DNA from: Candidatus Nitrospira inopinata
Lineage (GTDB): Bacteria; Nitrospirota; Nitrospiria; Nitrospirales; Nitrospiraceae
Assembly: GCF_001458695.1 (NCBI RefSeq)
Contig: NZ_LN885086.1
Span: 2,010,001 to 2,042,000 of the forward strand
Length of the DNA stretch: 32,000 bases
Direction: 5' to 3'
Shown one piece after another: positions 1 through 14,767 of the stretch. Numbering within the stretch: the first letter of the stretch is position 1; the number at the start of each line of letters is the position of its first letter. The notes beneath the pieces are model-generated. The model saw only the letters and a list, made by a program, of their open reading frames with translations. It was not told where the DNA came from and searched no databases. Made by a program: the position numbers and the translations under genes.

Positions 1-1248
1 AAGGGCCGGGCGTCGGTGGACGAATGGTTGGAACAGACCTCCATCGCCAACCCCCACGCCAAGCTGACCTATTACACGCCCGAGGGAGAAATCAAGGAAT
101 ACGTCAGGGCCTATCACGAACTGCCGCCGTCGCCGCGGGAGATCAAGCCGCATCCCTACGGCATCGAGTTCGGCATGTTCCTGAAGATGGTGCAGGACAC
201 GAAGAGCCATACGGTGGCGGGATTTTTGGCGAGCGATTTTTGCCGGGTCTCGCCGCAGTCGGCCGAGCAGATGTGCAGGGCGGCCAAGGTCTCGCCGCAG
301 ATGAAGCCACGGGACTTGAAAGGATCAGCCGCCGAAACATTGTATCGGACGATTCAGAACACGAAAATCATGGCTCCGCCGACCAATTGTCTGTCGCCGA
401 TCGGCGAAAAGGCGATCCTCTCCGGTCTCTATAAACAAATCAAGGGCGAGTTTTACACGGCGGTGACCAGACCACCGGCCGTCTATCGCGGCAATCCGTT
501 CGTCATTGAAGCGGGGCTCGCCTATGGCCAGCGACCGGAGGAACACAATAAGACGGTAAAACCGGCCGCCCCTAAAGCCGAGGGAGAGCAAGAAGAGGAT
601 GACGTCGAGCTGGCGCGGGTGATCCGGTATGCGAATCGAGTGCCGCTCCTGTATCAGCAGTCGGCCTGCGCGACCTTCAAGGCCGTGCTCGGCTTGTCAT
701 GGAAAAACTACGGCGTGGCCCAGTCGCGCGGCGCCTTACCGGCCGGCCCGATGGTGATCTTCGTGCACATGGCGTCGGTGTGGGTGCCGTTTACGAGCGA
801 ATCGAAAGAAGCGATCGCCGACTACGACGAGATCCACAAGGAAATCACGCTGGCGTTGCGGGAATGCGGCCGGCGGCTGGGATTGTATTTGCGTCGGCGC
901 GAGCGGGCCGCGAGCGAGTATCGAAGGAGGAACATTTTCGAATTGTACATCGAAGAAGTCGTCGAGGCGTGCAACCGCTTGAAGGGCGGGAAGGTGCCGA
1001 AAGAGAAACTCAAGAAACAGTTGCAGCACATCGCCCTGTCTCGCACCGGCGGGACCAAGACCGACGAGGTGCTGGGGAAAGCCGGAGGAGGGCCGGAGGG
1101 TCTGCCCCATTCCATCATCGTCACGGAGGGTGGCGTGGAAAACGAGACCACCGGCGCATCCGAGGCGGGTGAAACAGGCAGGGCCGATGGACCATCGCCA
1201 GGATCGGCCAACCGGGCGGCTCGCATCCGCCGTGGGGCGACAGCATGA
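1..1248 (+). CDS. top6B: DNA topoisomerase VI subunit B, C-terminal ~410 aa (5' end lies left of the window)
   Basis: Frame 1 is open from base 1. H2TH-like segment (REIKPHPYGIEFG), transducer-domain segments (RYANRVPLLYQQSACA, WVPFTSESKEAI) and a basic helix (RRRERAASEYRRRNIFELYIEEV) match type IIB topoisomerase B subunits. The stop overlaps the next start (ATGA at 1245-1248). Confidence 0.88.
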   Translation, partial: KGRASVDEWLEQTSIANPHAKLTYYTPEGEIKEYVRAYHELPPSPREIKPHPYGIEFGMFLKMVQDTKSHTVAGFLASDFCRVSPQSAEQMCRAAKVSPQMKPRDLKGSAAETLYRTIQNTKIMAPPTNCLSPIGEKAILSGLYKQIKGEFYTAVTRPPAVYRGNPFVIEAGLAYGQRPEEHNKTVKPAAPKAEGEQEEDDVELARVIRYANRVPLLYQQSACATFKAVLGLSWKNYGVAQSRGALPAGPMVIFVHMASVWVPFTSESKEAIADYDEIHKEITLALRECGRRLGLYLRRRERAASEYRRRNIFELYIEEVVEACNRLKGGKVPKEKLKKQLQHIALSRTGGTKTDEVLGKAGGGPEGLPHSIIVTEGGVENETTGASEAGETGRADGPSPGSANRAARIRRGATA

Positions 1249-2348
1249 CGACCAAGACGAAGAAACCCAGCCCGGTCGAAAAGAAACTGGTCGGCCTGGC
1301 CGATCTCGTGATCCAAGCGGCCGAACGGTCCAAAGATCCGACATTGCAGATTCCGATCCGCGCCCTGTCCAACGTCTCGTTCAATGAGCGGAAGGGGATG
1401 ATCGAGATGGGCGAGAAAAAACAGGCTCGCTCGTTCTTCAACGTCGGGATGGCCAAGAAGTTCATGCAGACGATGCTGGTGGCGGACGCCCTGGCGGAGT
1501 TGCAGCGGGCCGAGCTTACCACCTCGCTCCGCGAGATCTATTATCGAACCAAGCACACGATCAGAGATTCCCACGAGAACACGTTCGACACGCAGGACGA
1601 GTCCGATCCGATCATCGAAGATTTGGAGGTTTCTCTCGCCGCGCTTCGGGAAGAGCTGCATGTCCGGGCGGAGAACGCCGGGAGCATCGTCGGGCCGGTC
1701 GTGTTCGGCGACGACGGCGATCGCGTCGACTGCTCGAAACTGGGCAAGGGCGGCTATTCCGTTCCTTCGATCGTGGAGCCGGAGTATCTGGAGATCCGTC
1801 GCTGCACGGCGGATTTCGTGCTGCTCGTCGAAAAGGGCACGCAGTGGAACCGGCTGTCCGAAGACAAGTTCTGGAGGCGGTACAATTGTATTCTGCTCAC
1901 CGGTAACGGCCAGCCGCCGCGTGGTGTGCGGCGGCTGGCGCGACGGCTGCACGAGGAACAGAGACTTCCGGTTTACGTGCTGGTCGATAACGATCCCTGG
2001 GGCTATTACATCTATTCGGTGGTCAAGCAGGGATCGATCAATTTGGCGTTCGAAAGTCAACGCATGGCGATTCCCAAGGCCAAGTTCATGGGGCTCTCCA
2101 GCGCCGACCCCGAACGGTACGGCTTGCCGCGCAACGTCGGCATCAAGCTCAACGACAAGGATGTGGCGCGGGCGAAAGAACTGATGAATTACCAATGGTT
2201 CAAAAAACCGGCCTGGCAGGCGGAGATCAAACGGATGTTGGCGAGTGGATTAAAGTACGAACTCGACGCCTTAGCGAACAAGGACTTCCAGTACCTGACC
2301 AAACAGTATCTCCCTCGAAAATTGCAGGAGCGGGATTGGCTTGATTAG
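1245..2348 (+). CDS. top6A: DNA topoisomerase VI subunit A (Spo11/Top6A family)
   Basis: Catalytic-tyrosine motif LREIYYRTKH. Toprim elements VLLVEKGTQWNRL, LTGNGQPPRGVRRLARRL and VLVDNDPWGYYIY. 367 aa fits the family size. ATGA overlap with top6B. Confidence 0.9.
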   Translation: MTTKTKKPSPVEKKLVGLADLVIQAAERSKDPTLQIPIRALSNVSFNERKGMIEMGEKKQARSFFNVGMAKKFMQTMLVADALAELQRAELTTSLREIYYRTKHTIRDSHENTFDTQDESDPIIEDLEVSLAALREELHVRAENAGSIVGPVVFGDDGDRVDCSKLGKGGYSVPSIVEPEYLEIRRCTADFVLLVEKGTQWNRLSEDKFWRRYNCILLTGNGQPPRGVRRLARRLHEEQRLPVYVLVDNDPWGYYIYSVVKQGSINLAFESQRMAIPKAKFMGLSSADPERYGLPRNVGIKLNDKDVARAKELMNYQWFKKPAWQAEIKRMLASGLKYELDALANKDFQYLTKQYLPRKLQERDWLD

Positions 2349-2385
2349 CCCGTCGCTTCCGTAACCTCGACGTTCCCCATCGGCC

Positions 2386-3945
2386 ATGAAGATCCCGTCG
2401 GCTTGGACTTCGCCGCTTCGCGATTGGCAGCGTCGTGCGTTTGAGGCCGTCCGTACCCATCACGCGGCCGACTTTTTGGCCATGGCGACGCCGGCCGCGG
2501 GGAAAACGCGGTTCGCACTGCGCGTGGCCCACGAGTTTTTGAAAGCCGGCCGCGCGCAACGGCTTCTGGTGGTCTGCCCCACCAGCCACCTGCGCAGGCA
2601 ATGGGCGGATGCTGCGGGAACCGTCGGGTTGCAGCTTGATCCGGCCTTGACGAACGAACGGGCGCTGGAGGCTACGGACTATCACGGCGCGACGGTGACC
2701 TATCAGCATGTCTGCTCCGCTCCGGAAATGGTGCGCCGCGGCTGTCTCGCCAAAAAGACGCTGGTCGTGTTGGACGAGCTGCACCATGCGGGCGACGGCA
2801 AACAGTGGGGCAGATCGCTGAAAACGGCGCTGGAAGCGGCGGTGTTTCGCCTGATTTTATCCGGCACCCCCTTTCGCTCCGACAATGATGCCATTCCCTT
2901 CGTCCGGTACGTGCAGGGCGAGAGCCAGCCGGACTTTTCTTACGGGTACAGTGAAGCGATCGGCGACGGCGTCTGCCGGCCGATCCTCTTTCCCAGCTAT
3001 GAAGGCGAGTTGACCTGGGTGTCGAAAGGCCGTGAGCATACGGCCACGTTCGAGGACGGTTTGCCGTTCGATCGGCAGCGGGAGCGGTTGAAGACGGCGT
3101 TGCTGCAAGAGTCGTGGTTGGGGTCGGTGATCGCGGACGCCCATGCGCAGCTCGTTCGGGTTCGGCGGGAAGAGCAGCCCGACGCGGGAGGGCTCATCGT
3201 GGCCATGGATCAAGACCATGCCCGTTGGGTGGCCGATCTGGTCGGTCGCGTCGCCGGCGTCAAGGCGGCGGTGGCCGTCTCGGACGATCCGCAGGCGTCT
3301 TCCGTCATCGAAATGTTCACCGACGATGGAAAACAACAGTGGCTGGTGGCGGTCAACATGGTCAGCGAAGGGGTGGATATTCCTCGTCTGCGCGTCGGGA
3401 TCTATGGCACCAACGTGTTGACGGAGATGTACTTCCGGCAGGTGGTCGGACGGTTCGTTCGCATGCAGGACCATGTGCCGAAGCCGCAACGGGCGTGGCT
3501 CTATCTGCCCAAAGACCCGGTCTTGGCCCATTACGCCAGGCAGATCAAAGACGAGCGCGATCACGTGTTGGAGGACGTCCTCTCGTCCGGACAACGGGAT
3601 CTTTTCGACCGCGTGACCGTCTCCATGAACGAATATCGGCCGCTGATGGCCGTGGCTCGCATGGACACGGTGATCGGAGCGGAAGAGGCCGAGGAGATCG
3701 ATCGCGCGGCGGTGGGGGGCGCGCCGCCGGTTTCTTTGCACGAGCTCAAGCAAGAACTGCGGGATCTCCACCGGCTGCTTGTCAGCGCCGTGGCCAGGCA
3801 GAGCGGCGTGGATCATCGGCGTCTCAACGCGGAGTTGATCGCGCGGACCGGCAGTCGGATCGATCAGGCGACGGTCGAGCAGCTTCGCAAACGGATTCAA
3901 CTTCTCGAACGGTGGCGCGACCAGGGGTACGACGGTAAACGTTGA
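2386..3945 (+). CDS. SF2 DEAD/DEAH-box (ResIII-type) helicase with helical C-terminal extension
   Basis: Helicase motifs I ATPAAGKT, Ia VVCPTSHL, II VLDELHH, III LSGTPFRSD, V MVSEGVDIP, VI QVVGRFVR. Starts 38 nt downstream of top6A on the same strand. No obvious SD. Confidence 0.85.
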   Translation: MKIPSAWTSPLRDWQRRAFEAVRTHHAADFLAMATPAAGKTRFALRVAHEFLKAGRAQRLLVVCPTSHLRRQWADAAGTVGLQLDPALTNERALEATDYHGATVTYQHVCSAPEMVRRGCLAKKTLVVLDELHHAGDGKQWGRSLKTALEAAVFRLILSGTPFRSDNDAIPFVRYVQGESQPDFSYGYSEAIGDGVCRPILFPSYEGELTWVSKGREHTATFEDGLPFDRQRERLKTALLQESWLGSVIADAHAQLVRVRREEQPDAGGLIVAMDQDHARWVADLVGRVAGVKAAVAVSDDPQASSVIEMFTDDGKQQWLVAVNMVSEGVDIPRLRVGIYGTNVLTEMYFRQVVGRFVRMQDHVPKPQRAWLYLPKDPVLAHYARQIKDERDHVLEDVLSSGQRDLFDRVTVSMNEYRPLMAVARMDTVIGAEEAEEIDRAAVGGAPPVSLHELKQELRDLHRLLVSAVARQSGVDHRRLNAELIARTGSRIDQATVEQLRKRIQLLERWRDQGYDGKR

Positions 3946-4055
3946 ACTCTTCGATCACGATGGTGCCGCCGACTTCCTTCCTTTTCGGCCCGGCACCCTG
4001 CGCCAAAGGACGAATAGTGGTCCAGGTGGGCGTTTCCGACGCGGTTCTCGTGAAG

Positions 4056-4091
4056 AGCTGTGCGAGGGCGGGGTCCCGCCCCCGCACAGCT
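4056..4091. terminator. GC-rich hairpin between convergent genes (putative bidirectional terminator, no U-tract)
   Basis: AGCTGTGCGAGGGCGGGGTCCCGCCCCCGCACAGCT: a 9 bp plus ~5 bp stem with a single A-C mismatch. It lies between the helicase stop (3945) and the stop of the minus-strand gene (4134). Confidence 0.5.
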
Positions 4092-4133
4092 TGGCGGGAA
4101 TCAATGCGAGCGATGACAGGCGGCCGTTGCCGG

Positions 4134-5621
4134 CTACTTGTCGTCGCGATCCTCATCACCTTCCTGATCGTCCTCATCGTCGAGTTCGATGGAGGCTCCA
4201 CGATCACGATCTTTTTGACCTTTTTGATAGGCCATCGGCCTCACGTAGTCGCCGAGATCGCTCGCGGAGACTTTATAGGCGTGCAATACGCCCGGAAGCA
4301 GCTTGTAGCTGCCGTCGGCGGGCAGATCGAACGTTTCGTTGATCACGCCGTCCGTGGCGTCGGCCGTCGTGAAACAGGCGGTCGTGTGGCCGAGCGGACA
4401 TTGGATGGAGGTCGCCCAGGGATCGGCGTCACTGACCCGAAAGTACACGTCGAATTGTGTCCCACTGTCGTTCTGCGTCACACTGTAGTCGTTGTCCGTG
4501 CCGACGACCAAGACGTAGCCACCGTCCTTGAGGCGCGGACCAATGGCCAGCCCTTCCCACTTTTCCGGGACCTTGTTGCCAAGCTCCGGCAGGGTGTCGG
4601 CGGTGAGGTCAAGAAAGGGAACCGGCTGTTTGGTGACCTTTCCGGAGGGACAGGCTGAGGATGGGAAGGGTGGAGCCGGTGGGCTGTAGTCGGTGGCTCC
4701 TGTCATATCGATGCGGAATAGTTTCTTGTTCGGCGGTGAAAGGGTGGCACCGACACCGATGCCTCGGTTGTTCCGTTCGAGCACGAGAAACTCATGGTCG
4801 TTGATGGCCAACAGCCCGGACACACCGCGGCCTTGGCTGGCCCCTTCCAGTTGATAGGCATATTGCGCGACGGCGGTGCCGGTAGCGGTGCTGAACTTCA
4901 CGAGGCGAAGGCACACACCGTTGCTGCCTCCCTCATCCAGCATGGCGCTTTGGAGCATGGCATAGACATAAGCCCCATCGGGACTGACGGCCAATCCTTC
5001 AAACCCACGGTTCGATCTCTTGCCGGCCGTATTGCCGCTGTCGCCTGCGTAGTTGGGCATTCCGGCGGCGTTGCGGGGAATCAGATTGGTGGGGATGGCA
5101 AAAGAACGGACCCGGCGTCCCTTGCGGTTGAATTCATAGAGGGATGGGCCGTATTCATCCGACACATAGAAATGGCCGTTGCGGGGATCGATCACGAATC
5201 CTTCCGGATCGAAAGCGTTACCCAAGACGCTGGGCGGAGTGGGCGCCAGACCGTTTAAGGGATTTCCAAACTCGTCCTTGAAGATGATGGTCTTGAGGAT
5301 TTTGAACCCGCCGATCGCGCCGGTCTTCTTATCGACCTTCAAGCGAAACCGCTGGACGCGGGTCTGGTAATCCAGCGAGCCGCCACCAGGACCTCGATCG
5401 GAGAGACCGTACCACTGGTTTCGCTTGGCGTCATAGTAGAGGTCCGAGAAATAACCGACCCGGCCGGTATTGGCGTCCGTGCCGCCGCTCCGATCGAGCA
5501 TGGCTCCGTCTAGCGCGAGACCGTTCACAAATTCCGGCGCGGCTGAAACACCCGACACGGTCGCTGTACTGAGCAACCCCACTGCCGTCACTATCGTCAT
5601 CACCTGTCGCAACACCTTCAT
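4134..5621 (-). CDS. secreted esterase-like-activity-of-phytase (phytase-like) family protein
   Basis: N-terminal signal peptide (MKVLRQVMTIVTAVGLLSTATVSGVSAA). Family-like segments GYFSDLYYDAKRNQWYGLSDRGPGGG, AFDPEGFVIDPRNGHFYVSDEYG, NRGFEGLAVSPDGAYVYAM. Strong SD (GGAGGGGAGGA) just upstream of the ATG. Confidence 0.7.
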   Translation of the reverse strand: MKVLRQVMTIVTAVGLLSTATVSGVSAAPEFVNGLALDGAMLDRSGGTDANTGRVGYFSDLYYDAKRNQWYGLSDRGPGGGSLDYQTRVQRFRLKVDKKTGAIGGFKILKTIIFKDEFGNPLNGLAPTPPSVLGNAFDPEGFVIDPRNGHFYVSDEYGPSLYEFNRKGRRVRSFAIPTNLIPRNAAGMPNYAGDSGNTAGKRSNRGFEGLAVSPDGAYVYAMLQSAMLDEGGSNGVCLRLVKFSTATGTAVAQYAYQLEGASQGRGVSGLLAINDHEFLVLERNNRGIGVGATLSPPNKKLFRIDMTGATDYSPPAPPFPSSACPSGKVTKQPVPFLDLTADTLPELGNKVPEKWEGLAIGPRLKDGGYVLVVGTDNDYSVTQNDSGTQFDVYFRVSDADPWATSIQCPLGHTTACFTTADATDGVINETFDLPADGSYKLLPGVLHAYKVSASDLGDYVRPMAYQKGQKDRDRGASIELDDEDDQEGDEDRDDK

Positions 5622-5921
5622 CCTCCCCTCCGATCGTTGAGAAGTTGTGGAGCATCACGCAAAGATTTCCCGGAAGCCTCTTCTCCACTGTCCGCTGCAT
5701 GCCACGGCCCCATGGCACACCACGGCATGGGAAAGAGTGGTTGAGGAAAACCGCCGAAGAGAACTGTCTGGTGACACCGTAGGAGACGGCCGTTACTGTT
5801 GCGTCAGCAAAGGATGAAAGAAGAGTTAAGAGAGCGAGAGATTCGGCAGGACCACAGCCAGCCTGTCGGAGGGCAGGAGCCGAATGTTAGTGGCCGGCCG
5901 AGAAAGTGCACGAGACTGTGG

Positions 5922-6221
5922 CTATCGCTGGAGGGCAGTTTCTTTCGCGCGTAGATATTTGTCGAAGACGAACGTGCCGAAGGGGAGGATCGAGGCAATG
6001 AAGGCTTGGAAGCAAAATCTATTGTCCCATTGATAGGCGGCGCGGAGCTTGACGAGCCTTGCGACATAGAGCAGGAACAGAATCCCGTGGATCGATCCCA
6101 CGATCCTCACGGCCAGGGGCAGGCCCATCAGATACTTCAACGGCATGGCGATAAAGAGCAGGATGACGAACGACGTGCCCTCGGCCAATGCGATTGTTCT
6201 GAAAGCCCGGATTGGGTGCAT
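5922..6221 (-). CDS. DUF3817-family small membrane protein
   Basis: From the internal Met (MHPIRAFRTIALAEGTSFVILLFIAMPLKY...GSIHGILFLLYV...ILPFGTF) the product is ~99 aa, as in DUF3817 proteins. The longer ORF to 6581 would overlap the divergent gene at 6471, so it is rejected. The Met at 6257 is an alternative start. Confidence 0.72.
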   Translation of the reverse strand: MHPIRAFRTIALAEGTSFVILLFIAMPLKYLMGLPLAVRIVGSIHGILFLLYVARLVKLRAAYQWDNRFCFQAFIASILPFGTFVFDKYLRAKETALQR

Positions 6222-6470
6222 GGGTGTCTCGGTGCTCAGGCTCTCTTTGGGGAGCATGCGCGGGCGGTATTGTCGGGGACCGGTCGGGTTGATGTCAACT
6301 TCAGGGCTTTGGCCAATCCTTATGGTGGCTTTGATGGGAATTCTTGCGTGAAAACAAAGCTCGGAGAACTGTTTCGCTTGAGACAAAATCTTCCGGTCAT
6401 ATAAGCAGCTAAGCAGTGTCTGAGCGCGGAAACGCTCGGAGCCGGCCGGATGTGGTAAGCTCCCGACCCT

Positions 6471-7625
6471 ATGCGTATTTTCGTTCTCGGTGTCGGAGCC
6501 ACCGGCTCCTACCTCGTCAAACTTCTCCTTCGTCAGGGCCACCATGTGACGTGCGGCGATCGAGATCCGGAGCGGGCCCACCGTTTCTTGGGGGGGACGG
6601 TACCGGTCGCTGTTGAGCGGGTGAACGGGCGCAATCGGTGGAGCGTCATCAAGGCCTCACGGGGCGCCCAGTTGATCGTGAACATGTTGCCGTCCGTCTG
6701 TAACCGGACCGTGCTCCGTGCCGCGCTCCATGTCCGGGCTCATTATCTCGATACGGCCGCTCATCTGACGAAGAGCCCCTTTCGCGCCGAACAGTTGCAG
6801 TTCACACGCCGTTTTATAGAGAAGCGTCGGACGGCCGTCATCACCGCCGGGGTTGCGCCGGGGCTGACCAATCTTCTCGCGGCTGCGGCCGCAGATTCAC
6901 TCGATGCGGTCGAGACTGTTCGGGTTCGGCTCTATGAATCCACAGAAAGCGAGCATCCTGTCTCGCAATGGTCGGCGGAAGTATCTTTTGACGAGGCTGT
7001 CTCGCGCCCCCGTCTCTATCGCGACGGCAGGTTTCTGCTCGGCCGGCGATTCGGCGAACGCGAAATGTTTCGTTTCCCGGCGCCGATCGGTTCGGTGCCG
7101 GTCATGCTGGCGGCTCAAGACGAAGTGGTCACGCTTCCCCATGTAATTCCTCTCCGATCGATGGATGCCAAGATCGGCGGGTCGGATGTCGATCGTCTGC
7201 GCAGATGGTACCGCCAGGGGAAGCTCAGAAAATCGCGAGGGCTCGTGTCCTCACGCTTCCCGCGAATGCCGACGCCGGGCACGGTGGATCGTCTGATCCG
7301 TCGGGGGATTCTTCACGATGCACATTTTGCGGCCGCCGTGGTTGTTGAGGGCGTCAAAGCCGGCCGCCGGATGACGATTCGCTGGGACGCCGCAATGCCG
7401 AGCCTGTCCCGGCTTTACCGGCAAGGGGAGTTACGGCCGCCCATCGCTTGGGCGATGGCGCGCATGGCGTCGCTGTTTGTGAAACATTTTCCTCGTGATC
7501 TCATCGGTGTCCATGCTCCGGAGGCCCTCCCTCAGGAGATCCGGCGCGCCATCCTGCGCGATGCCCGCGCGCGAGGGTTTCGCCTTGTGAAGCATGTGAC
7601 AGTGCGGGCACGGCGCCCTTCCTGA
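6471..7625 (+). CDS. saccharopine dehydrogenase-like NAD(P)-binding protein
   Basis: N-terminal Rossmann motif MRIFVLGVGATGSYLV. ITAGVAPGLTNLLAA is typical of saccharopine dehydrogenase / homospermidine synthase-like enzymes. No SD in front of the ATG. Confidence 0.78.
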   Translation: MRIFVLGVGATGSYLVKLLLRQGHHVTCGDRDPERAHRFLGGTVPVAVERVNGRNRWSVIKASRGAQLIVNMLPSVCNRTVLRAALHVRAHYLDTAAHLTKSPFRAEQLQFTRRFIEKRRTAVITAGVAPGLTNLLAAAAADSLDAVETVRVRLYESTESEHPVSQWSAEVSFDEAVSRPRLYRDGRFLLGRRFGEREMFRFPAPIGSVPVMLAAQDEVVTLPHVIPLRSMDAKIGGSDVDRLRRWYRQGKLRKSRGLVSSRFPRMPTPGTVDRLIRRGILHDAHFAAAVVVEGVKAGRRMTIRWDAAMPSLSRLYRQGELRPPIAWAMARMASLFVKHFPRDLIGVHAPEALPQEIRRAILRDARARGFRLVKHVTVRARRPS

Positions 7626-7712: not shown

Positions 7713-7979
7713 ATGCCCAACATTACGTTGCTCGTCTCGTCCAGTTGCGGGGCCTGCCCGTCGGCCAAGAGTCTGTGGAAGCAGTTGCGCACAAAGTACA
7801 GTTTTTCTTACCGAGAAATCGACATCGGGACGAAAGACGGGCAGGAGCTGGCCGAACGTCATTCGGTTCGCGCGGTTCCCGCCACCATCATCGACGGCCG
7901 GCTGACCTTCGTCGGCGTGCCGAGCCGTGAAAGCGCGGAAAAGGCCCTTCAGTTGAAACTCAAGCAACGGGAAGGATGA
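7713..7979 (+). CDS. thioredoxin/glutaredoxin-fold small protein (CxxC)
   Basis: CGAC active-site-like motif near the N-terminus (LLVSSSCGACPSAKSLW). cis-Pro-type motif VRAVPATIIDG. 88 aa. Confidence 0.7.
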   Translation: MPNITLLVSSSCGACPSAKSLWKQLRTKYSFSYREIDIGTKDGQELAERHSVRAVPATIIDGRLTFVGVPSRESAEKALQLKLKQREG

Positions 7980-7984
7980 ACATC

Positions 7985-8140
7985 ATGGACGAAGACGATA
8001 TTGAACTGCCGGTCCTTCCTCGGTTTGACAAGGGCCCGCCGCCTGATTGCCCGATCTGCGGCGATCCCATGTCGTTTGTGGACGGCGATTGGGCCTGCGT
8101 GGACTGTAACGGCGAACTGCTGGGGCCGGAGACCGGCTGA
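7985..8140 (+). CDS. 51-aa zinc-ribbon protein (not in the supplied ORF track, below its length cutoff)
   Basis: ATG at 7985 lies 5 nt after the previous stop and is preceded by GGGAAGGA (SD-like). It translates to MDEDDIELPVLPRFDKGPPPDCPICGDPMSFVDGDWACVDCNGELLGPETG, with two CxxC knuckles and an acidic N-terminus. Stop TGA at 8138-8140. GC-rich third positions like the neighbouring genes. Confidence 0.55.
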   Translation: MDEDDIELPVLPRFDKGPPPDCPICGDPMSFVDGDWACVDCNGELLGPETG

Positions 8141-8235
8141 CGGTTCGTTGTTCGGTGTTTGCCGGCTGTCGATGCGCAGAAGCCGCGAGTATCTTGCTTT
8201 GTGACCACGATCCTTGACGATCGACGGTTTCTCCC

Positions 8236-11200
8236 ATGCTGAAGGTCGTCATCGGTCGATTCCATCCCACTCTCGAATCCGCATTGGTTGAGCGAGTCAG
8301 GCGGCTCAAGGCCCAAGATCCCTTGGCGCCGCTCGCGATCGTTGTTCCGTCCAATCCGCTGGCCGACCGTCTTCGGGCCCTGCTGGCCGTCGAACACCGG
8401 CTGTCGCTGCTGAGCCTGCACGTCTTGACCTTTCATCAACTCGCCCTCCGCCTGGCGGACGAAAGAACGTCCGATCATGCGTTGCCTCGCGTCGTCGATG
8501 AGTTGTTTTTCGAACAGGTGATTCGTTATCTGGTTTGCCGCACGCTCTCACGGCATGAGCCGTTTCAGCGACTTGGGCGCACCGCGGGGACCTGGGGCGC
8601 CCTCTGGGCCACGATTCGCGATTTGAAGGACGCGCTCGTCGACCCCGACCAGATGATGCGGGGACTGCGCGAAGACTGTTTCGATGAAGATGACCAAGGG
8701 TGGCTCGAAGCGCTCGCGACCCTCTACGCGGCCGTCAGAGAGTCCGGTCGAACGTTGGGGGTCGGGACACAAAATGACCTCGCCGAGCGCCTCACTCCCC
8801 TGCTGCCGACCTCTTCATTTCTCCGACCGTTCAAAGAGGTGCTCTATTATGGATTCTACGACTTGACTCAGGTCCAGCTCTCGTTCTTTGAGGCCGTGAG
8901 CCGCGCCAAAGAGACGACGCTGTTCTTCCCGTTGGAAGATGAGCCGGCCTATGACTTTGCGCGGCGATTCTTCGATCGCTGCATCAGGCCGTTGGCGGCG
9001 ACGATTGAGAGGGAGATCGGACCATCGCCACCGTCATCCGAAGCGGGCCAAGAGGTTCGGTTTGCAATACGGAACGTGATCGGCCCTGAAGAAGAATTGG
9101 CTTCGGCCTGCCGCATGATCCTTGAGTTGGTCGAAACCAACGGCTATCGGTTCGACGAGATCGGCGTCGTGGCTCGCACGCTTGATCCCTACGGACCGCA
9201 TATTCAGTCGGTCTTTGACCGCCATCGGGTGCCGTTTCGTACGACGGCCACTCGGCCGTTGATGGAAGAGCCGACAAGCAAACTGATGCTCCAGCTTGTC
9301 TCGTTGCCGTTGAACGACTGGTATGCTCCGGTCGTGCTCGACGTCGTGACGTCTCCCTTCTACACGACCGATCTGTGCGATGACCGGTCGCCGGCCTATA
9401 GACCCGAACAGTGGAGACTCGCCGTTCAGTCCCTGCGCATCACTCGCGGAACGGACGAATGGAACAGACTGGATCGGGTCGGCCAGGGGCGATTGGCGCT
9501 CGACGGCGAGGAGAGCCCGCTCGATTCCCTGGCGATTGCCCCGGAAACGCTCGCATTGCTCCGACAAGTCGTCGCCGAACTGATGAAAGACTGTTCCACG
9601 TTGCCGTCCAAGGGACCCATCGGTCGGCTGGTGGAGGCCTGTCAGGTCCTGGTTGATCGGCGCATCCGTCGGCCTGATCCGGGAGCGAGCCGCCAAGATC
9701 CCCTTGCCGCTGATCGGATGGCGATGTGGGCGGCTCTGGATCGTCTCTGGGCCACCCTTCTGGAATTGGAGTCGCTCAATGAAGAACTGACCTGGCATGA
9801 GTTCGTCGAATTGTTGACGCGCGCCATTGAAAAGACCACGGCGCCGGTTGCTTCCGTCTCCTGTGCCGGTGTGACGGTGGCGGACGTGATGGCCGCTCGC
9901 GGGGTGCCGTTCAAGGCGTTGTTCCTTTTGGGACTGAACGATCAAACCTTCCCCCGTTCCATCCGAGAGGACGGATTTCTGCGGGATCGGCACCGTCGCG
10001 TGCTGGATGCCACGTTGGGGTTCAAGATCGATGAAAAACTGGCCGGCCACGAAGAAGAGCGGTTGTTGTTCCATCTCGCCTGTCGCTCGGCACGTCACCG
10101 TCTGTATCTCTCCTATCAACGGGCCGATGAATCGGGCCGCACGCTGGCGACGTCGCCGTATCTTGACGACGTCGCCCGGCTGTTTGGAGCGGAAGATTCC
10201 GGTGCGGAAGTGATTCCGCGCCGCCTGGTGGAGCGATTGCGCCGGCGACCGGCGGAGCGATTCGTCATTGCGCCTGCCGATCTCATCCAATGGCTAGCCC
10301 TGAACGGCCAGGACCCGGCTGATTTGATTGATGCGCTGGGTCGCGATGGGGACCTGTTTCGTCACGCGATCGAGGCCCTTGGCCGGATCGAGGCGGACGA
10401 TCACCAACTCAACGAGTTCGACGGAGTAACCGGACAGCTTGAAACCCATTGGCGACGTCTGCTCGATCAAGGAATGGCTCCGACGCCGCTCGAACGGTAT
10501 GCCCGTTGTCCCTTTCAGTATTTCGCCGCCGACGTTCTGCGGTTGGAAACGAACCGGATGGTAATCGAACCGGGACCGGACGCCGCCCTTGTCGGCAGCC
10601 TCTGCCACGCTGCGCTGCGGCACTGTTACGAGCGGCTCGTGCAAGCCGGATGGCCGGTTCAACGGGTGGAGGAGGATGAGTTGACAAGAATCGTTGCTTC
10701 GTCCGTTGAACGGGCCTCGGCTGATCTGGAGAGTCGGCAAGGGGTGGGCCCTTATCTCCTCTGGGAAATGGCGAAAGAGACGGTCTGTCAGCTTGTGCGC
10801 GAGGCGGTGGAGGCGGATGAAGCGGAACAGGCCGAGCAGCCGTACAGCCCCATTGCATTTGAGGTGGAGGGAGAGGGGGGTGTTCCGGAGACTCTTGGCG
10901 GGAAGCCGTTGAAAATTCGAGGCCGGGTGGATCGGTTGGATCGGCATCGGGTGTCCGGCGTACTGCGTGTGATCGACTACAAACTCAAGCTTGGGTCGAG
11001 CATGAAGCCGGAAGATCGGAATCTGGTGCAGTCGGCGGTTCGGGGTTATCGTTTGCAGCCGCCGCTCTACAGTTGCCTTTCCGTGCAGGGATCTTCTTTG
11101 CCCGACCTCGTGCAGTTCTTTTTTCTCGCGCCTCAGTGGGTGCCGAGCATCAGCCGCTCGACGTTCGAGAGGCCTTCGTGGTCGTCCGATACCGGTCTCC

Positions 11201-11400
11201 TGATTCGGAAGACGCTGGCCACACTGCTCGAAGGAATCAACCGCGGACGATTTTTTATCTTGCCGGACGGCTATTGCGACGGCTGCCTCTACCGGCCTGC
11301 GTGCCGGCGGGAACATGGTCCCACCTGGTGGAGAGTCTATCGTGCGGCTGAATCGAAATCGCTGAGGGCGATGCGGAAACACAAGGTGAACGGTGAGTGA
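8236..11400 (+). CDS. addB: AddB/RexB-like PD-(D/E)XK nuclease subunit with C-terminal Fe-S cysteine cluster
   Basis: 1054 aa. C-terminal nuclease motifs RGRVDRLD and LRVIDYKLK, flanked by four Cys (RYARCPFQYF ... GYCDGCLYRPAC) as in the AddB 4Fe-4S staple. Sits directly upstream of, and overlaps, an AddA-like gene. The N-terminal Walker A position is degenerate (IGRFHPTLES). Confidence 0.82.
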   Translation: MLKVVIGRFHPTLESALVERVRRLKAQDPLAPLAIVVPSNPLADRLRALLAVEHRLSLLSLHVLTFHQLALRLADERTSDHALPRVVDELFFEQVIRYLVCRTLSRHEPFQRLGRTAGTWGALWATIRDLKDALVDPDQMMRGLREDCFDEDDQGWLEALATLYAAVRESGRTLGVGTQNDLAERLTPLLPTSSFLRPFKEVLYYGFYDLTQVQLSFFEAVSRAKETTLFFPLEDEPAYDFARRFFDRCIRPLAATIEREIGPSPPSSEAGQEVRFAIRNVIGPEEELASACRMILELVETNGYRFDEIGVVARTLDPYGPHIQSVFDRHRVPFRTTATRPLMEEPTSKLMLQLVSLPLNDWYAPVVLDVVTSPFYTTDLCDDRSPAYRPEQWRLAVQSLRITRGTDEWNRLDRVGQGRLALDGEESPLDSLAIAPETLALLRQVVAELMKDCSTLPSKGPIGRLVEACQVLVDRRIRRPDPGASRQDPLAADRMAMWAALDRLWATLLELESLNEELTWHEFVELLTRAIEKTTAPVASVSCAGVTVADVMAARGVPFKALFLLGLNDQTFPRSIREDGFLRDRHRRVLDATLGFKIDEKLAGHEEERLLFHLACRSARHRLYLSYQRADESGRTLATSPYLDDVARLFGAEDSGAEVIPRRLVERLRRRPAERFVIAPADLIQWLALNGQDPADLIDALGRDGDLFRHAIEALGRIEADDHQLNEFDGVTGQLETHWRRLLDQGMAPTPLERYARCPFQYFAADVLRLETNRMVIEPGPDAALVGSLCHAALRHCYERLVQAGWPVQRVEEDELTRIVASSVERASADLESRQGVGPYLLWEMAKETVCQLVREAVEADEAEQAEQPYSPIAFEVEGEGGVPETLGGKPLKIRGRVDRLDRHRVSGVLRVIDYKLKLGSSMKPEDRNLVQSAVRGYRLQPPLYSCLSVQGSSLPDLVQFFFLAPQWVPSISRSTFERPSWSSDTGLLIRKTLATLLEGINRGRFFILPDGYCDGCLYRPACRREHGPTWWRVYRAAESKSLRAMRKHKVNGE

Positions 11401-14400
11401 TCGTTCTTCGATACCGGCTCGCGCGATCCCGGACCGCGCCGCCCGGGAGGCGGCGGAGACGACGTGTGATCGAAACGTCGTGGTCATCGCCGGGGCGGGA
11501 ACCGGCAAGACGACTTTGCTGGTGAATCGGCTGGTGCATCTGCTCATGAGGCAGCCGGAGCCGATCCCCATCATGCGAATCGTCGCCTTGACGTTCACCA
11601 ACAAGGCCGCGACGGAGATGAAGATACGGTTGCGCGAACGACTGACCGTTCTTGCCCGTCCTGAAACCGCGTCGATGCGGTCAAACGGCGGAGGAGCCCT
11701 GTCCTGCCGCGAGCTTGAAGCGCGCTACGGTCTCGATCCGGAAGCCGTCGCCACGCTGGCTCATGCGGCGCTCGCCGATCTTGAAAAGGCGCAAATCGGC
11801 ACGTTGCACGGTTTCGCGGCTCATCTGCTGCGGCTCTACCCCTTGGAGAGCCGCGTCGATCCCGATTTTCGGGAAGACGATGGCCAGCGATTCGAGGAAC
11901 ACTTCGCCGCCTCGTGGGATCTCTGGTTGGATCGAGAGCTGAGCCGATCCGGACTTCATCATCGTCCGTGGCGGAGCGTGTTGGCGTCGGTTGCGTTGGA
12001 TTCGATTCGAGACCTGGCCAAAGCCCTCTGCGGCGAATTGGTCGATCTCGATGTCCTTCAACGGCAGGTCTCATCGGATGCGATACCGGCGGCCGTCCTC
12101 CAGTGGTTGCAACAGCAACAGGGGCGAGCCCGTCAGTTGTTGCAAATCCACGACCGGCCGAAACGGCGAAAGATTGAACGGATGTTGGCCGCCGCGGCGT
12201 CGTTGATGGAACTGGTGGTGGAAAGAGGCTTGGCCGGCCGGCAGAGATTGTCGATGGAAGAGCGGCAGTGGCTCGAAAAAGACCTGGGTAGCCGTGTGGT
12301 TGGGTGGGAAGGGCAAGATTTTCAAGAGGCGGCTACCCTGATCGAGACGGCGCAACAGTTGCTGGCGGTCGATGAAAGCGTGTTGCGCGACCTTCTGTCG
12401 CTGCTTCTTCCCCTGGTCCGGCAGGTTCGAGACACGTTCGTCACGCAAGGCTGGTTGTCATTCGACGGACTGTTGGCTCGGGCCAGAGCGTTGCTTTATG
12501 ACTATCCGTCCGTCCGCGAGCGGATCAAGCGGGAATATCAGGCGGTGTTGGTCGATGAGTTTCAGGACACGGATCCCGTCCAGTATGAAATCATCCTGGC
12601 CCTGTCGGAACGGCTTGGAGAGAGCGCGACTCGCTGGCAGGATCTGTCGCTCGAGCCGGGGAAACTCTTTATCGTCGGCGACCCGAAACAGTCGATCTAT
12701 GCCTTTCGTCGAGCGGACATCGAGGCCTTTGACCGAGTGGTCGAAAAGATCGAAAGGGGTGGAGGCATGGTTCTGAACTTGACGACGAACTTCCGCAGCG
12801 ACGCGGCCCTGTTGGAACGGGTGAACGGCGTGTTTGATCGGCTGTTCGAGCGGCGGCCGTTGGTCCAACCTCCGAACGTGCCGTTGGAGGCCGGTCGGCC
12901 ACGAGGCGCCATGTCGATCGAGCCGGGCGTGCGACTTCACGTGGTGGTTCCTCGGGAACCGGATGTCTCCTTCGATGCGGCGGAGGCGACAAGGGCCGAG
13001 AGCGAAATGGTGGCGCGCTGGCTTGCCGAAGAGGTGCTGAACAGCTCCTCGATCAAACCGGGCCACGTGGCCTTGTTGTTCAGGAAACTCACGCAGGCCG
13101 ATGCGTATCTGGACGCGTTGCGGCGGCATGACATCGCGTACGTGATCGAGGGGGAGAAACATTTCTACCGCCGCCAGGAGGTCATCGACTTGGTCAATCT
13201 GTTGCGCCTCCTGGATCATCCCCACGACGAGATCGCCTGGGCCGGCCTCCTGCGATCGCCGCTCGGCGGGCTGACGGATCGTCACCTGTACGAGCTTCGG
13301 CAGGCTGGGCTGTGTGATTATCGTCATGCGGACCGTCTGGCAAGGTGGGATCATCCGTCGGCCGCTGCCGTCCAAAGACTCTATGGACATTTGACGTGGC
13401 TCCATCGCGCCATTGCCGGTCTTCCGTTGGTCGAGGCTCTCGATCATGTGTTTGACCGGTTGCCCGTTTTGGAGGTAGCGGCCGCGTCCCTCCATGGAGA
13501 ACAGGCCGTGGCCAATCTTCTGAAAGTGAAGCAGATGGCCGCGTCCTTCGCCGACCGGCCTCACGTGACCTTCAGCCGCTTCGTCGATCTCATGAGCGCG
13601 AGGCTGGAAGAACAACCGGACGAATCGGAGAGTCCGTTGACGGAAGAATCTTCGGACGCCGTGCACGTGTTGACCATTCACAAGGCCAAGGGATTGGAGT
13701 TTCCCATCGTGGTGCTGCCGGGTCTTCACCAAGGAAGCGGGCGCGAACGCGATGTTCGGCAGGTTTCCTACGATTGGTCGAGCAATACCTACGGTCTTTC
13801 ACTGGGTTGCCATCGGTCCCTTGGGTCGTTGCTCGTGGAGAGCAAGCAGCGGCTGCGGGAAGAGGCGGAACGGCGCCGTTTGCTGTATGTGGGCATGACG
13901 AGGGCCAAGGACCTGCTCGTGTTGACCGGAGGGGTCACGGCCCGCTCGGCCGGAGAGACGGTCTTTGATCTGTTGCAGTCCGGCGCGACGGGAACGATCG
14001 GAGACCGTTCGATCGCCGATCTTCAAGTGGGGGCCGCGGTGATTCCCCACGTGGCGGTCACGGCTCCGGAACGAAAACGCCCGTCCAGACGACGCGAACA
14101 GGAAGCCGAATCCATCGTGATCGATGCGCGAGCCGTTGCGACTCGCTGGCGTGAGCGGGCAGTGCGGTGGGATCAGGTGCGCAAGACCCCGTACTTCCTC
14201 ACTCCCACGAGCATGGGTGCGAGCATGGGGGAAGAGGGGGCGCCGACCGTGAGTCTCACGGCTTCGAGAGGGGAGGAAGCGGCCATCGCACGGTTGGCCG
14301 GCGTCGTGGTCCATCGTCTGCTCGAACGGTGGGATTTTTCGCGAGATCCGTCGGAATTATCGGTTCAGCTCGACCCGGTTCTCGAATCGGTCCTTGGGAC

Positions 14401-14767
14401 TGATGAACAGGCCCATGCCGAGGTGGTCGCCTCGTCCGTCCGGGAGCTTCTGGCCTCCTTCTCTCAGTCCGACCTCTACAAGCGGCTCGCAACGGCCGAG
14501 ATCCTCGGCCGTGAAGTGCCGTTGCTGATGCCGTGGGGAGAGGGACAGGTGATGGAGGGGGTGATCGACGTGATCTACCGGCTTGACGGAACAGTCTGGG
14601 TGGCGGACTATAAAACGGATGCGATCGAGGCCGAACAAGCGGCGGCTCGGGCCGAACGGTATCGGATGCAAGCTCAGGTGTACAAGGAAGCGGTGCGGGG
14701 AAGCCTGCATGTCGAGCCTCGGTTTCACTGTCTGTTTCTGCGGTGCGGAGTGGCCGTCGAGCTCTGA
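11393..14767 (+). CDS. addA: AddA-like UvrD/Rep-family helicase with C-terminal PD-(D/E)XK nuclease
   Basis: Motifs VIAGAGTGKTT, VLVDEFQDTDPVQ, FIVGDPKQSIYAFRRAD, LTTNFRS, LTIHKAKGLEFPIV, LLYVGMTRAK. Nuclease GVIDVIYRLDGTVWVADYKTD. GTG start overlaps the addB stop (GTGAGTGA). Confidence 0.88.
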   Translation: MSDRSSIPARAIPDRAAREAAETTCDRNVVVIAGAGTGKTTLLVNRLVHLLMRQPEPIPIMRIVALTFTNKAATEMKIRLRERLTVLARPETASMRSNGGGALSCRELEARYGLDPEAVATLAHAALADLEKAQIGTLHGFAAHLLRLYPLESRVDPDFREDDGQRFEEHFAASWDLWLDRELSRSGLHHRPWRSVLASVALDSIRDLAKALCGELVDLDVLQRQVSSDAIPAAVLQWLQQQQGRARQLLQIHDRPKRRKIERMLAAAASLMELVVERGLAGRQRLSMEERQWLEKDLGSRVVGWEGQDFQEAATLIETAQQLLAVDESVLRDLLSLLLPLVRQVRDTFVTQGWLSFDGLLARARALLYDYPSVRERIKREYQAVLVDEFQDTDPVQYEIILALSERLGESATRWQDLSLEPGKLFIVGDPKQSIYAFRRADIEAFDRVVEKIERGGGMVLNLTTNFRSDAALLERVNGVFDRLFERRPLVQPPNVPLEAGRPRGAMSIEPGVRLHVVVPREPDVSFDAAEATRAESEMVARWLAEEVLNSSSIKPGHVALLFRKLTQADAYLDALRRHDIAYVIEGEKHFYRRQEVIDLVNLLRLLDHPHDEIAWAGLLRSPLGGLTDRHLYELRQAGLCDYRHADRLARWDHPSAAAVQRLYGHLTWLHRAIAGLPLVEALDHVFDRLPVLEVAAASLHGEQAVANLLKVKQMAASFADRPHVTFSRFVDLMSARLEEQPDESESPLTEESSDAVHVLTIHKAKGLEFPIVVLPGLHQGSGRERDVRQVSYDWSSNTYGLSLGCHRSLGSLLVESKQRLREEAERRRLLYVGMTRAKDLLVLTGGVTARSAGETVFDLLQSGATGTIGDRSIADLQVGAAVIPHVAVTAPERKRPSRRREQEAESIVIDARAVATRWRERAVRWDQVRKTPYFLTPTSMGASMGEEGAPTVSLTASRGEEAAIARLAGVVVHRLLERWDFSRDPSELSVQLDPVLESVLGTDEQAHAEVVASSVRELLASFSQSDLYKRLATAEILGREVPLLMPWGEGQVMEGVIDVIYRLDGTVWVADYKTDAIEAEQAAARAERYRMQAQVYKEAVRGSLHVEPRFHCLFLRCGVAVEL

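Follow-up and report, generated by a model that had tools for sequence, protein, structure and literature searches.

A helicase gene behind the topoisomerase VI operon of Candidatus Nitrospira inopinata: probably a lineage-specific gene order of single origin

INTRODUCTION

The partnerships known between helicases and topoisomerases, namely reverse gyrase and the RecQ-Top3 pairs, involve type IA enzymes; they consist in a gene fusion or a demonstrated physical interaction, and they are widely conserved among taxa. For a type IIB enzyme, no helicase partner is described in the literature searched. Here, we analyze a stretch of 32,000 nucleotides (nt) from Candidatus Nitrospira inopinata (NZ_LN885086.1, positions 2,010,001 to 2,042,000 of the forward strand; the whole stretch is referred to as the window), in which top6B and top6A, encoding the type IIB enzyme topoisomerase VI (Topo VI), are followed on the same strand by the gene of a superfamily 2 (SF2) helicase. 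An initial annotation, made from the sequence alone, had proposed that the three genes form a single transcription unit and that the helicase may target, load, or be mechanistically coupled to Topo VI, or else that the trio is a horizontally acquired DNA-processing module. The comparison of approximately 170 related loci indicates that the position of the helicase gene after top6A is probably a lineage-specific gene order of single origin, with no sign of a dedicated Topo VI partner.

Topo VI in Nitrospira is already published. In a survey of the bacterial enzymes, in which Nitrospira moscoviensis stands for the Nitrospiraceae, the bacterial topo VI clusters were attributed to transfers from archaea, and Topo IV was reported to be missing from topo VI-bearing bacteria outside the Pseudomonadota and Terrabacteria, a set that includes N. 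moscoviensis; for bacterial topo VI, the authors also speculated on alternative accessory proteins (Allen and Maxwell 2024, PMC11302465). The words "operon," "neighbour," "synteny," and "helicase" do not occur in that article, and literature searches for Topo VI with helicase, AddAB, or operon terms returned nothing relevant beyond it and a paper on Topo VIII.

RESULTS

Linkage of the helicase gene to top6A

The three open reading frames (ORFs) of the proposed unit lie where the initial annotation had placed them, and the left end of the window is organized as follows:

1 to 1248, plus strand: 3′ part of top6B, 415 codons for the H2TH, transducer, and variable tail regions; the part for the GHKL ATPase lies upstream of the window
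1245 to 2348, plus strand: complete top6A, 367 residues with TP6A_N, Topo_VI_alpha, and Toprim domains (NF003333 match, alignment with 2ZBK)
2349 to 2385, plus strand: spacer of 37 nt between top6A and the helicase gene (sequence, motif scan, and folding)
2386 to 3945, plus strand: gene of a stand-alone SF2 (ResIII/DExH) DNA helicase or translocase of 519 residues (Pfam, AlphaFold2 model, Foldseek, and PDB sequence match)

Linkage was counted from both partners. For the count starting from top6, one genome per GTDB species with Top6A was considered, and the 80 closest of at least 579 Top6A-encoding genomes, representing Nitrospira/Nitrospiraceae and Rokubacteria/Methylomirabilota, were scored by tblastn with the three window proteins as queries. 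The helicase gene was found directly downstream of top6A in 35 of the 80 species-representative loci and was absent from this position in 37 informative ones, the remaining 8 being uninformative; i.e., the adjacency is missing from 37 of the 72 loci that can be judged. It is lacking in all judgeable loci of Rokubacteria/Methylomirabilota, in the N. defluvii-like clade and one further clade of Nitrospiraceae, and on several branches within the otherwise linked clade. On a Top6B+A tree (all trees mentioned here are quick neighbor-joining trees of very similar proteins), parsimony places the unlinked state at the root and requires at least five changes of state. In the unlinked loci the slot after top6A contains, among others, genes for the peroxiredoxin AhpC, ArgJ, and PAS sensors. 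A substitute helicase in the same position was considered and rejected: the 25 families listed for the 106 ORFs after top6A in the 37 loci include none of helicase type. The helicase gene of N. moscoviensis is set apart from top6A by one for an aldo-keto reductase, and in the metagenome-assembled genome (MAG) STL-NOB2 both occur on one contig (JAXLZC010000001) at a distance of 2.2 Mb, with top6BA at 0.64 Mb and the helicase gene at 2.86 Mb, beside the inorganic pyrophosphatase gene ppa.

The count starting from the helicase gave a consistent picture. A diverse helicase alignment was used to scan metagenomes, which yielded 80 loci; helicases with approximately 73 to 79% identity to that of the window were preceded by top6BA in 10 of 10 cases. 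Neither Top6A nor Top6B was encoded near helicases of 67 to 68% identity (0 of 3 informative metagenome loci) or 38 to 49% identity (0 of 38), so that Topo VI was found near none of the helicases outside the clade (0 of 41 informative loci). The nearest outgroup helicase (54 to 57% identity) likewise has no top6 nearby, and the helicase gene of Nitrospira sp. AP038806.1, the product of which is 73% identical to the window protein, follows a GlgE/TreT-like cluster. In the helicase tree, all top6-linked copies form one clade, and the unlinked copies (L169, L004, L096 to L099, and L085) branch outside it. Because the linked helicases are monophyletic and the unlinked Nitrospira copies lie outside them, the adjacency is read as one historical event that was passed on by descent. 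The closest homologues of the helicase are labeled Nitrospira by their sources.

Overall, the top6A-helicase adjacency is kept in one Nitrospira clade, where it was counted in 35 species-level and 10 metagenome loci; with regard to the features by which a helicase-topoisomerase module can be recognized, there was neither a gene fusion nor an adjacency across independent lineages. The functional coupling envisaged in the initial annotation is not borne out by these counts, since co-occurrence is restricted to this clade and 37 informative top6BA loci do without the helicase. On the co-occurrence test proposed in the initial annotation, the functional reading fails, with 0 of 38 informative distant loci linked and the nearest outgroups unlinked.

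Two side observations concern the surroundings of unlinked family members. Three unlinked Nitrospiraceae helicase genes are located downstream of ppa (L004:7250-7981, L096:5654-6340, and L097:7087-7770), and in Saccharomonospora phage PIS 136 a pyrophosphatase gene (L167:1-660) lies approximately 5 kb upstream of the helicase homologue; this resemblance is probably a coincidence. Conserved partner genes of the wider family were sought by ORF clustering and a Pfam census, which revealed nothing recurrent beyond DUF3817 and Sacchrp_dh. Specifically, the census of 142 ORFs flanking distant helicases contained no recurrent partner, the commonest family having 4 members. DUF3817 was found beside distant homologues (40 to 44% identity) in 4 of 66 loci and Sacchrp_dh in 8 of 66 (e.g., L124:9571-9936, L114:3515-4717, and L108:6381-7571), a weak but repeated association with the helicase family across lineages and unrelated metagenome loci.

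The topoisomerase VI genes

Profile searches corroborated the earlier assignment of the first two ORFs to the subunits of Topo VI. Frame 1 of the plus strand is open from 1 to 1248 without a start codon inside the window, and its product, the C-terminal two-thirds of Top6B, matches Pfam Topo-VIb_trans (PF09239; E = 9e-57) and the NCBIfam equivalog PRK04184 (9e-112; 374 bits at a cut-off of 274) over profile positions 189 to 514 of 539, in line with the H2TH and transducer motifs noted before. Because the PRK04184 match begins at profile position 189, the N-terminal GHKL ATPase must be cut off by the window edge; the complete Top6B encoded on a 99%-identical metagenome contig (L001) comprises 602 residues and includes HATPase_c.

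Top6A is complete and features matches to TP6A_N (PF04406; 6e-17), to the all-β domain Topo_VI_alpha (2e-8), and to Toprim (PF21180; 2.7e-60). It also matches the NCBIfam equivalog NF003333 over positions 6 to 367 of 367 with 579.3 bits, thereby passing a curated cut-off (465) that sets it apart from Topo VIII and Mini-A-like relatives. The protein can be aligned end to end with Topo VI-A of Sulfolobus shibatae (2ZBK chain A; 1e-80), with LREIYYRTKH placed on IRDLYYRGKH and with LLVEKG and DNDPWG placed on VVEKD and DADPYG, respectively. We take IYYRTKH to contain the catalytic tyrosine, LLVEKG the Toprim glutamate, and DNDPWG the DxD residues; the Spo11/Top6A tyrosine motif and the Toprim acidic cluster reported in the initial annotation are thus both in place. 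The reported overlap of the top6B stop and the top6A start, ATGA at 1245 to 1248, can be read directly from the sequence.

The two genes probably form a translationally coupled pair. Their product would be an A2B2 enzyme that passes one duplex through an ATP-gated double-strand break and would serve Nitrospira as its housekeeping type IIB topoisomerase. As Topo IV is reported missing from such bacteria (PMC11302465), Topo VI is probably the main decatenase of the cell. Within the sample, top6BA is present in all Nitrospiraceae loci.

The Top6A proteins of several MAGs of Rokubacteria/Methylomirabilota (L074 to L081 and L084) are 85 to 86% identical to Nitrospira Top6A, which is unusually high across phyla, and the Top6B proteins are 71 to 78% identical; the genes flanking top6 differ between these loci and those of Nitrospira. 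The pattern suggests a recent transfer of top6BA between the phyla, a repeated mis-binning in several independent studies being the less likely alternative.

The helicase and its family

The 519-residue product matches Pfam ResIII (2e-12) and DEAD (5e-9), with Helicase_C just under its cut-off, and contains all of the helicase motifs quoted in the initial annotation. It displays the features of SF2 enzymes, i.e., a Walker A motif (motif I), a DExH motif (motif II), motifs III and VI, and two RecA-like lobes; GKT (residues 39 to 41), DELHH (130 to 134), SGT (159 to 161), and QxxGRxxR (352 to 359) belong to the columns that vary little or not at all among 127 homologues. The Walker A motif occupies residues 36 to 41 and is preceded by no N-terminal domain.

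An AlphaFold2 model calculated from the 127 homologues reached a predicted local distance difference test value (pLDDT) of 89.5 and a predicted template modeling score (pTM) of 0.86. According to DSSP analysis of the model, strands and helices alternate up to residue ~395, and this part is read as the two RecA-like lobes of the SF2 core. The C-terminal part is made up of disordered linkers (394 to 412 and 435 to 446), a β-hairpin (417 to 430), and three confident helices within residues 451 to 513. The helical C-terminal extension of about 130 residues postulated before is therefore only partly helical in the model: the helices at 451 to 513 are there, whereas the rest consists of linkers and the β-hairpin. 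This tail is shared by unlinked and by distant, top6-free homologues, and no clade-specific feature was seen in it; since it is conserved in distant relatives that have no top6 nearby, it does not represent an adaptation specific to Topo VI.

A Foldseek search of the PDB with the model placed RadD of Escherichia coli first (E = 1.5e-14; TM score of ~0.47), followed by RapA, Snf2-type motors, type I HsdR, and an XPB-containing TFIIH complex, and a PDB search with the sequence matched only archaeal XPBII (1e-8). RadD, which we take to be an SF2 accessory ATPase of recombination and repair, has a zinc-binding cysteine motif and an SSB-interacting C-terminal domain. RadD (YejH; PDB 8H5Y and 7R7J) and the window protein share a stand-alone two-lobe SF2 core, a similar size, and 18% identity over ~397 columns; however, there is no significant sequence match, the window protein has no CxxC pairs, and its C-terminal three-helix tail differs. 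Membership in the RadD group was rejected accordingly, the top fold match extending over the core only and the PDB sequence search giving no hit to RadD. Proteins of the XPB/Rad25 type are characterized by an N-terminal damage-recognition domain, a RED motif, and a thumb insert. With archaeal XPBII (6P4F and 5TNU) and XPB of TFIIH, the window protein shares the motif III-type stretch GTPxRxD and motif VI, but it leaves no room for the N-terminal domain and carries RSD instead of RED; no Bax1-like neighbor was seen among the window ORFs. With motif I starting at residue 36 and the 1e-8 match limited to core motifs, an assignment to XPB was also dismissed. Because the N-terminal domain, the RED motif, and the cysteine cluster that characterize these families are missing, the helicase is an orthologue of neither XPB nor RadD.

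The family to which the helicase belongs is large: clustering at 50% identity leaves 4426 representatives at a threshold of E ≤ 1e-3 and 1393 at one of E ≤ 1e-30. Full-length relatives with 36 to 39% identity are encoded on plasmids of Mycobacterium, Tsukamurella, and Streptomyces and by Saccharomonospora phage PIS 136. Some members (P0125, P0137, P0150, P0204, P0217, and P0233) carry an N-terminal HNH endonuclease domain (PF01844), implying that part of the family combines nuclease and helicase activities; this domain is lacking in the window protein. A reading of the helicase as a defense protein was rejected, the matches in PADLOC, NCBIfam, and PHROGs being those of a generic helicase core and far below the cut-offs. 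For instance, TIGR04095 (dnd_restrict_1) was matched with 63.5 bits at a cut-off of 600, and the match to PADLOC PbeA (75 bits; 1e-21) covers the helicase core only; no dnd- or pbe-type domain is encoded among the neighbors of the helicase in the window. Taken together, the protein may be described as a stand-alone RadD/XPB-like SF2 DNA translocase of a large, uncharacterized bacterial family, for which fold and family would suggest a role in DNA repair or recombination.

The junction between top6A and the helicase gene

A scan of the 37-nt spacer (2349 to 2385) revealed no terminator-like or promoter-like site, and the junction folds no better than shuffled sequence (z = 0.25). The start codon of the helicase gene is not preceded by a recognizable Shine-Dalgarno sequence (2349 to 2388); the last bases upstream of the ATG (…CATCGGCC or …ATTGGCT) are alike in many linked loci. 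As to the proposed single transcription unit, it remains plausible for this genome, because the genes share one strand, the spacer measures 37 nt, and no terminator-like site is present. Co-transcription of the helicase gene with top6 in this genome is probable as judged from the sequence, and the helicase gene would then be read through from the top6 promoter.

Across the 35 linked species, the spacer ranges from 34 to 249 nt. The longest of these spacers, L015:11102-11340 and L018:11102-11353, contain inserts of 236 to 249 nt bounded by long terminal inverted repeats (CCCGCATTAYTCATGA ... TCATGAATAATGYGGG), which fold at -96 (L015) and -118 (L018) kcal/mol. These inserts look like a miniature inverted-repeat transposable element (MITE) in the junction, and they could act as a transcription stop.

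The downstream end of the helicase gene is marked by one further element:

4043 to 4102, no strand assigned: strong GC-rich hairpin of -44.9 kcal/mol (z = -6.3) between the convergent helicase and phytase-like genes

This hairpin, which had been taken to close the unit, proved to be real. It has no T tract and is possibly a bidirectional, non-canonical transcript end. Its arms (4056 to 4073 and 4074 to 4091) are the only copies in the window, and an interpretation as a repeated element of the repetitive extragenic palindromic (REP) type was discarded for that reason.

The synteny backbone and its variable slot

Downstream of the hairpin, the window continues with two blocks that are relevant to the position of the helicase gene:

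4134 to 7625, no common strand: variable slot with a phytase-like gene (4134 to 5621, minus strand), a DUF3817 gene (5922 to 6581, minus strand), and a Sacchrp_dh_NADP gene (6471 to 7625, plus strand) (Pfam, synteny map)
7713 to 14767, plus strand: genes for Thioredoxin_3 (trx; 7713 to 7979), addB (8236 to 11400), and addA (11393 to 14767) (Pfam)

Placing the window genes on 99 loci showed that the order top6B-top6A ... Thioredoxin_3-addB-addA is more widely conserved in Nitrospiraceae than the top6A-helicase adjacency (loci L007 to L073). Of the 37 loci without the helicase, 23 have trx and addB after top6A, with fewer than 700 nt between top6A and the start of trx in 7 cases. The content of the slot between top6A and trx, in the window the helicase, phytase-like, DUF3817, and Sacchrp_dh genes, varies by Nitrospira species. 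addAB is absent from the top6 loci of Rokubacteria. The vicinity of a topoisomerase that makes double-strand breaks to the end-processing enzyme AddAB may be historical synteny or more.

The remaining bacterial housekeeping genes of the window are those for Lgt, a ComM-type Mg-chelatase ATPase, NDH-2, ClpB, and AddAB, identities that agree with the plainly bacterial setting described in the initial annotation. G+C content is even over the region. The suggestion of a horizontally acquired module is not supported by this uniform composition, nor by the presence of top6BA throughout the sampled Nitrospiraceae and of helicase orthologues in several Nitrospira chromosomal contexts.

DISCUSSION

The comparison is probably best accounted for by a single relocation: in the ancestor of one Nitrospira clade, the helicase gene would have moved into the variable slot that separates top6A from trx-addBA, and the clade would have inherited it there since. 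Several observations weigh against so plain an account. The linked species of the clade keep top6A and the helicase gene close together (34 to 249 nt), whereas the genes further downstream were rearranged repeatedly; short junction and changing downstream genes resemble the pattern of an operon boundary, which would be compatible with selection for co-expression. Moreover, DNA is the substrate of Topo VI as well as of the helicase and AddAB, and a loose functional neighborhood of the three is therefore conceivable. Finally, the comparison covers only the 80 closest of at least 579 Top6A genomes, and the sample does not extend to Myxococcota, Planctomycetota, Bdellovibrionota, Pseudomonadota, Cyanobacteriota, and other phyla with top6.

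In a dedicated module, the co-transcribed helicase would load, target, or assist Topo VI, in this Nitrospira clade at least; it might, for example, expose crossovers at replication termini or clear trapped cleavage complexes. Such a module would explain why the genes lie on one strand with a 37-nt spacer and no terminator-like site, and why their adjacency extends over 35 species-level and 10 metagenome loci down to ~73% helicase identity while the downstream neighbors vary; the published speculation on alternative topo VI accessory proteins (PMC11302465) would also accommodate it. We nonetheless consider it unlikely. The adjacency is of single origin and was lost or is absent at least four further times by parsimony on the Top6 tree; both genes persist unlinked (2.2 Mb apart in JAXLZC010000001, and in AP038806.1, L096, and L097), and N. 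moscoviensis tolerates an inserted aldo-keto reductase gene. In addition, none of the 37 unlinked top6 loci has a listed helicase family in the same position, Topo VI is encoded near none of the 38 informative distant members of the family, and the C-terminal tail shows no clade-specific feature. A broader neighborhood for the handling of DNA breaks, top6BA-helicase-trx-addBA, in which the helicase is tied to recombinational repair of the AddAB type instead of to Topo VI, is comparably improbable. The wider-conserved synteny of top6BA with trx-addB-addA in Nitrospiraceae and the structural match to RadD, presumably an accessory ATPase of recombination and repair, speak for such a tie, but neither addAB nor top6 is located near the unlinked orthologues of the helicase, the Rokubacteria top6 loci do without addAB, synteny within one family can be purely historical, and no paper combining "topoisomerase VI" and "AddAB" was found in the literature search.

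Still less probable, in our estimate, is that the helicase gene was left behind or carried in by a mobile or defense element that landed beside top6A. Family members with an N-terminal HNH nuclease, their occurrence on actinobacterial plasmids and in phage PIS 136, and the weak core matches to PADLOC PbeA (1e-21), a dnd restriction-enzyme model, and phrog_16 point in this direction, as does the location of the gene in a slot of variable content. On the other hand, Nitrospira orthologues with 67 to 99% identity are spread over several chromosomal contexts, a distribution that resembles vertical inheritance; in the window, the helicase gene has no integrase, transposase, methyltransferase, or other defense gene beside it, G+C content is uniform, the defense-model matches reflect the generic helicase core far under the curated cut-offs, and the window protein lacks HNH.

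We regard a lineage-specific gene order of single origin as the preferred reading, and the outcome is a clear negative for the proposed helicase-Topo VI module, leaving an ordinary Nitrospira Topo VI locus. A capture of the helicase into the top6BA operon as a Topo VI accessory in one Nitrospira clade is very unlikely; a captured helicase might guide Topo VI to DNA that is catenated or positively supercoiled, be it behind or ahead of replication forks, or it might strip stalled Topo VI-DNA cleavage complexes for processing by AddAB. If true, a type IIB topoisomerase would have a described helicase partner for the first time; helicase-topoisomerase pairing, so far a theme of type IA enzymes, would then include type IIB as well, and the result would bear on the control of Spo11-like cleavage. 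Independently of this question, the helicase family, with HNH in some members, a shared three-helix C-terminal tail, and at least 1393 cluster representatives, is a pointer to an unstudied group.

In relation to known systems, the topoisomerase genes show the same Top6A domain set, the same Top6B transducer, and the same B-then-A order with overlapping stop and start as Topo VI of S. shibatae (2ZBK) and Methanosarcina mazei (2Q2E), and the window proteins display no notable difference. The helicase resembles the group annotated as "DEAD/DEAH box helicase family protein" (e.g., WP_068742138.1 of Tsukamurella and PIS_093 of phage PIS 136) with 36 to 49% identity along almost its entire length, C-terminal tail included, but some group members have HNH where the window protein does not, and the gene neighbors differ. 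The likeness to the helicase-topoisomerase pairs, i.e., the reverse gyrase fusion and RecQ/BLM/Sgs1 with Top3, is that the gene of an SF2 helicase adjoins that of a topoisomerase on the same strand; whereas those pairs involve type IA enzymes and a fusion or a shown interaction, the arrangement in Nitrospira is an adjacency of single origin within one genus-level clade, with no gene fusion.

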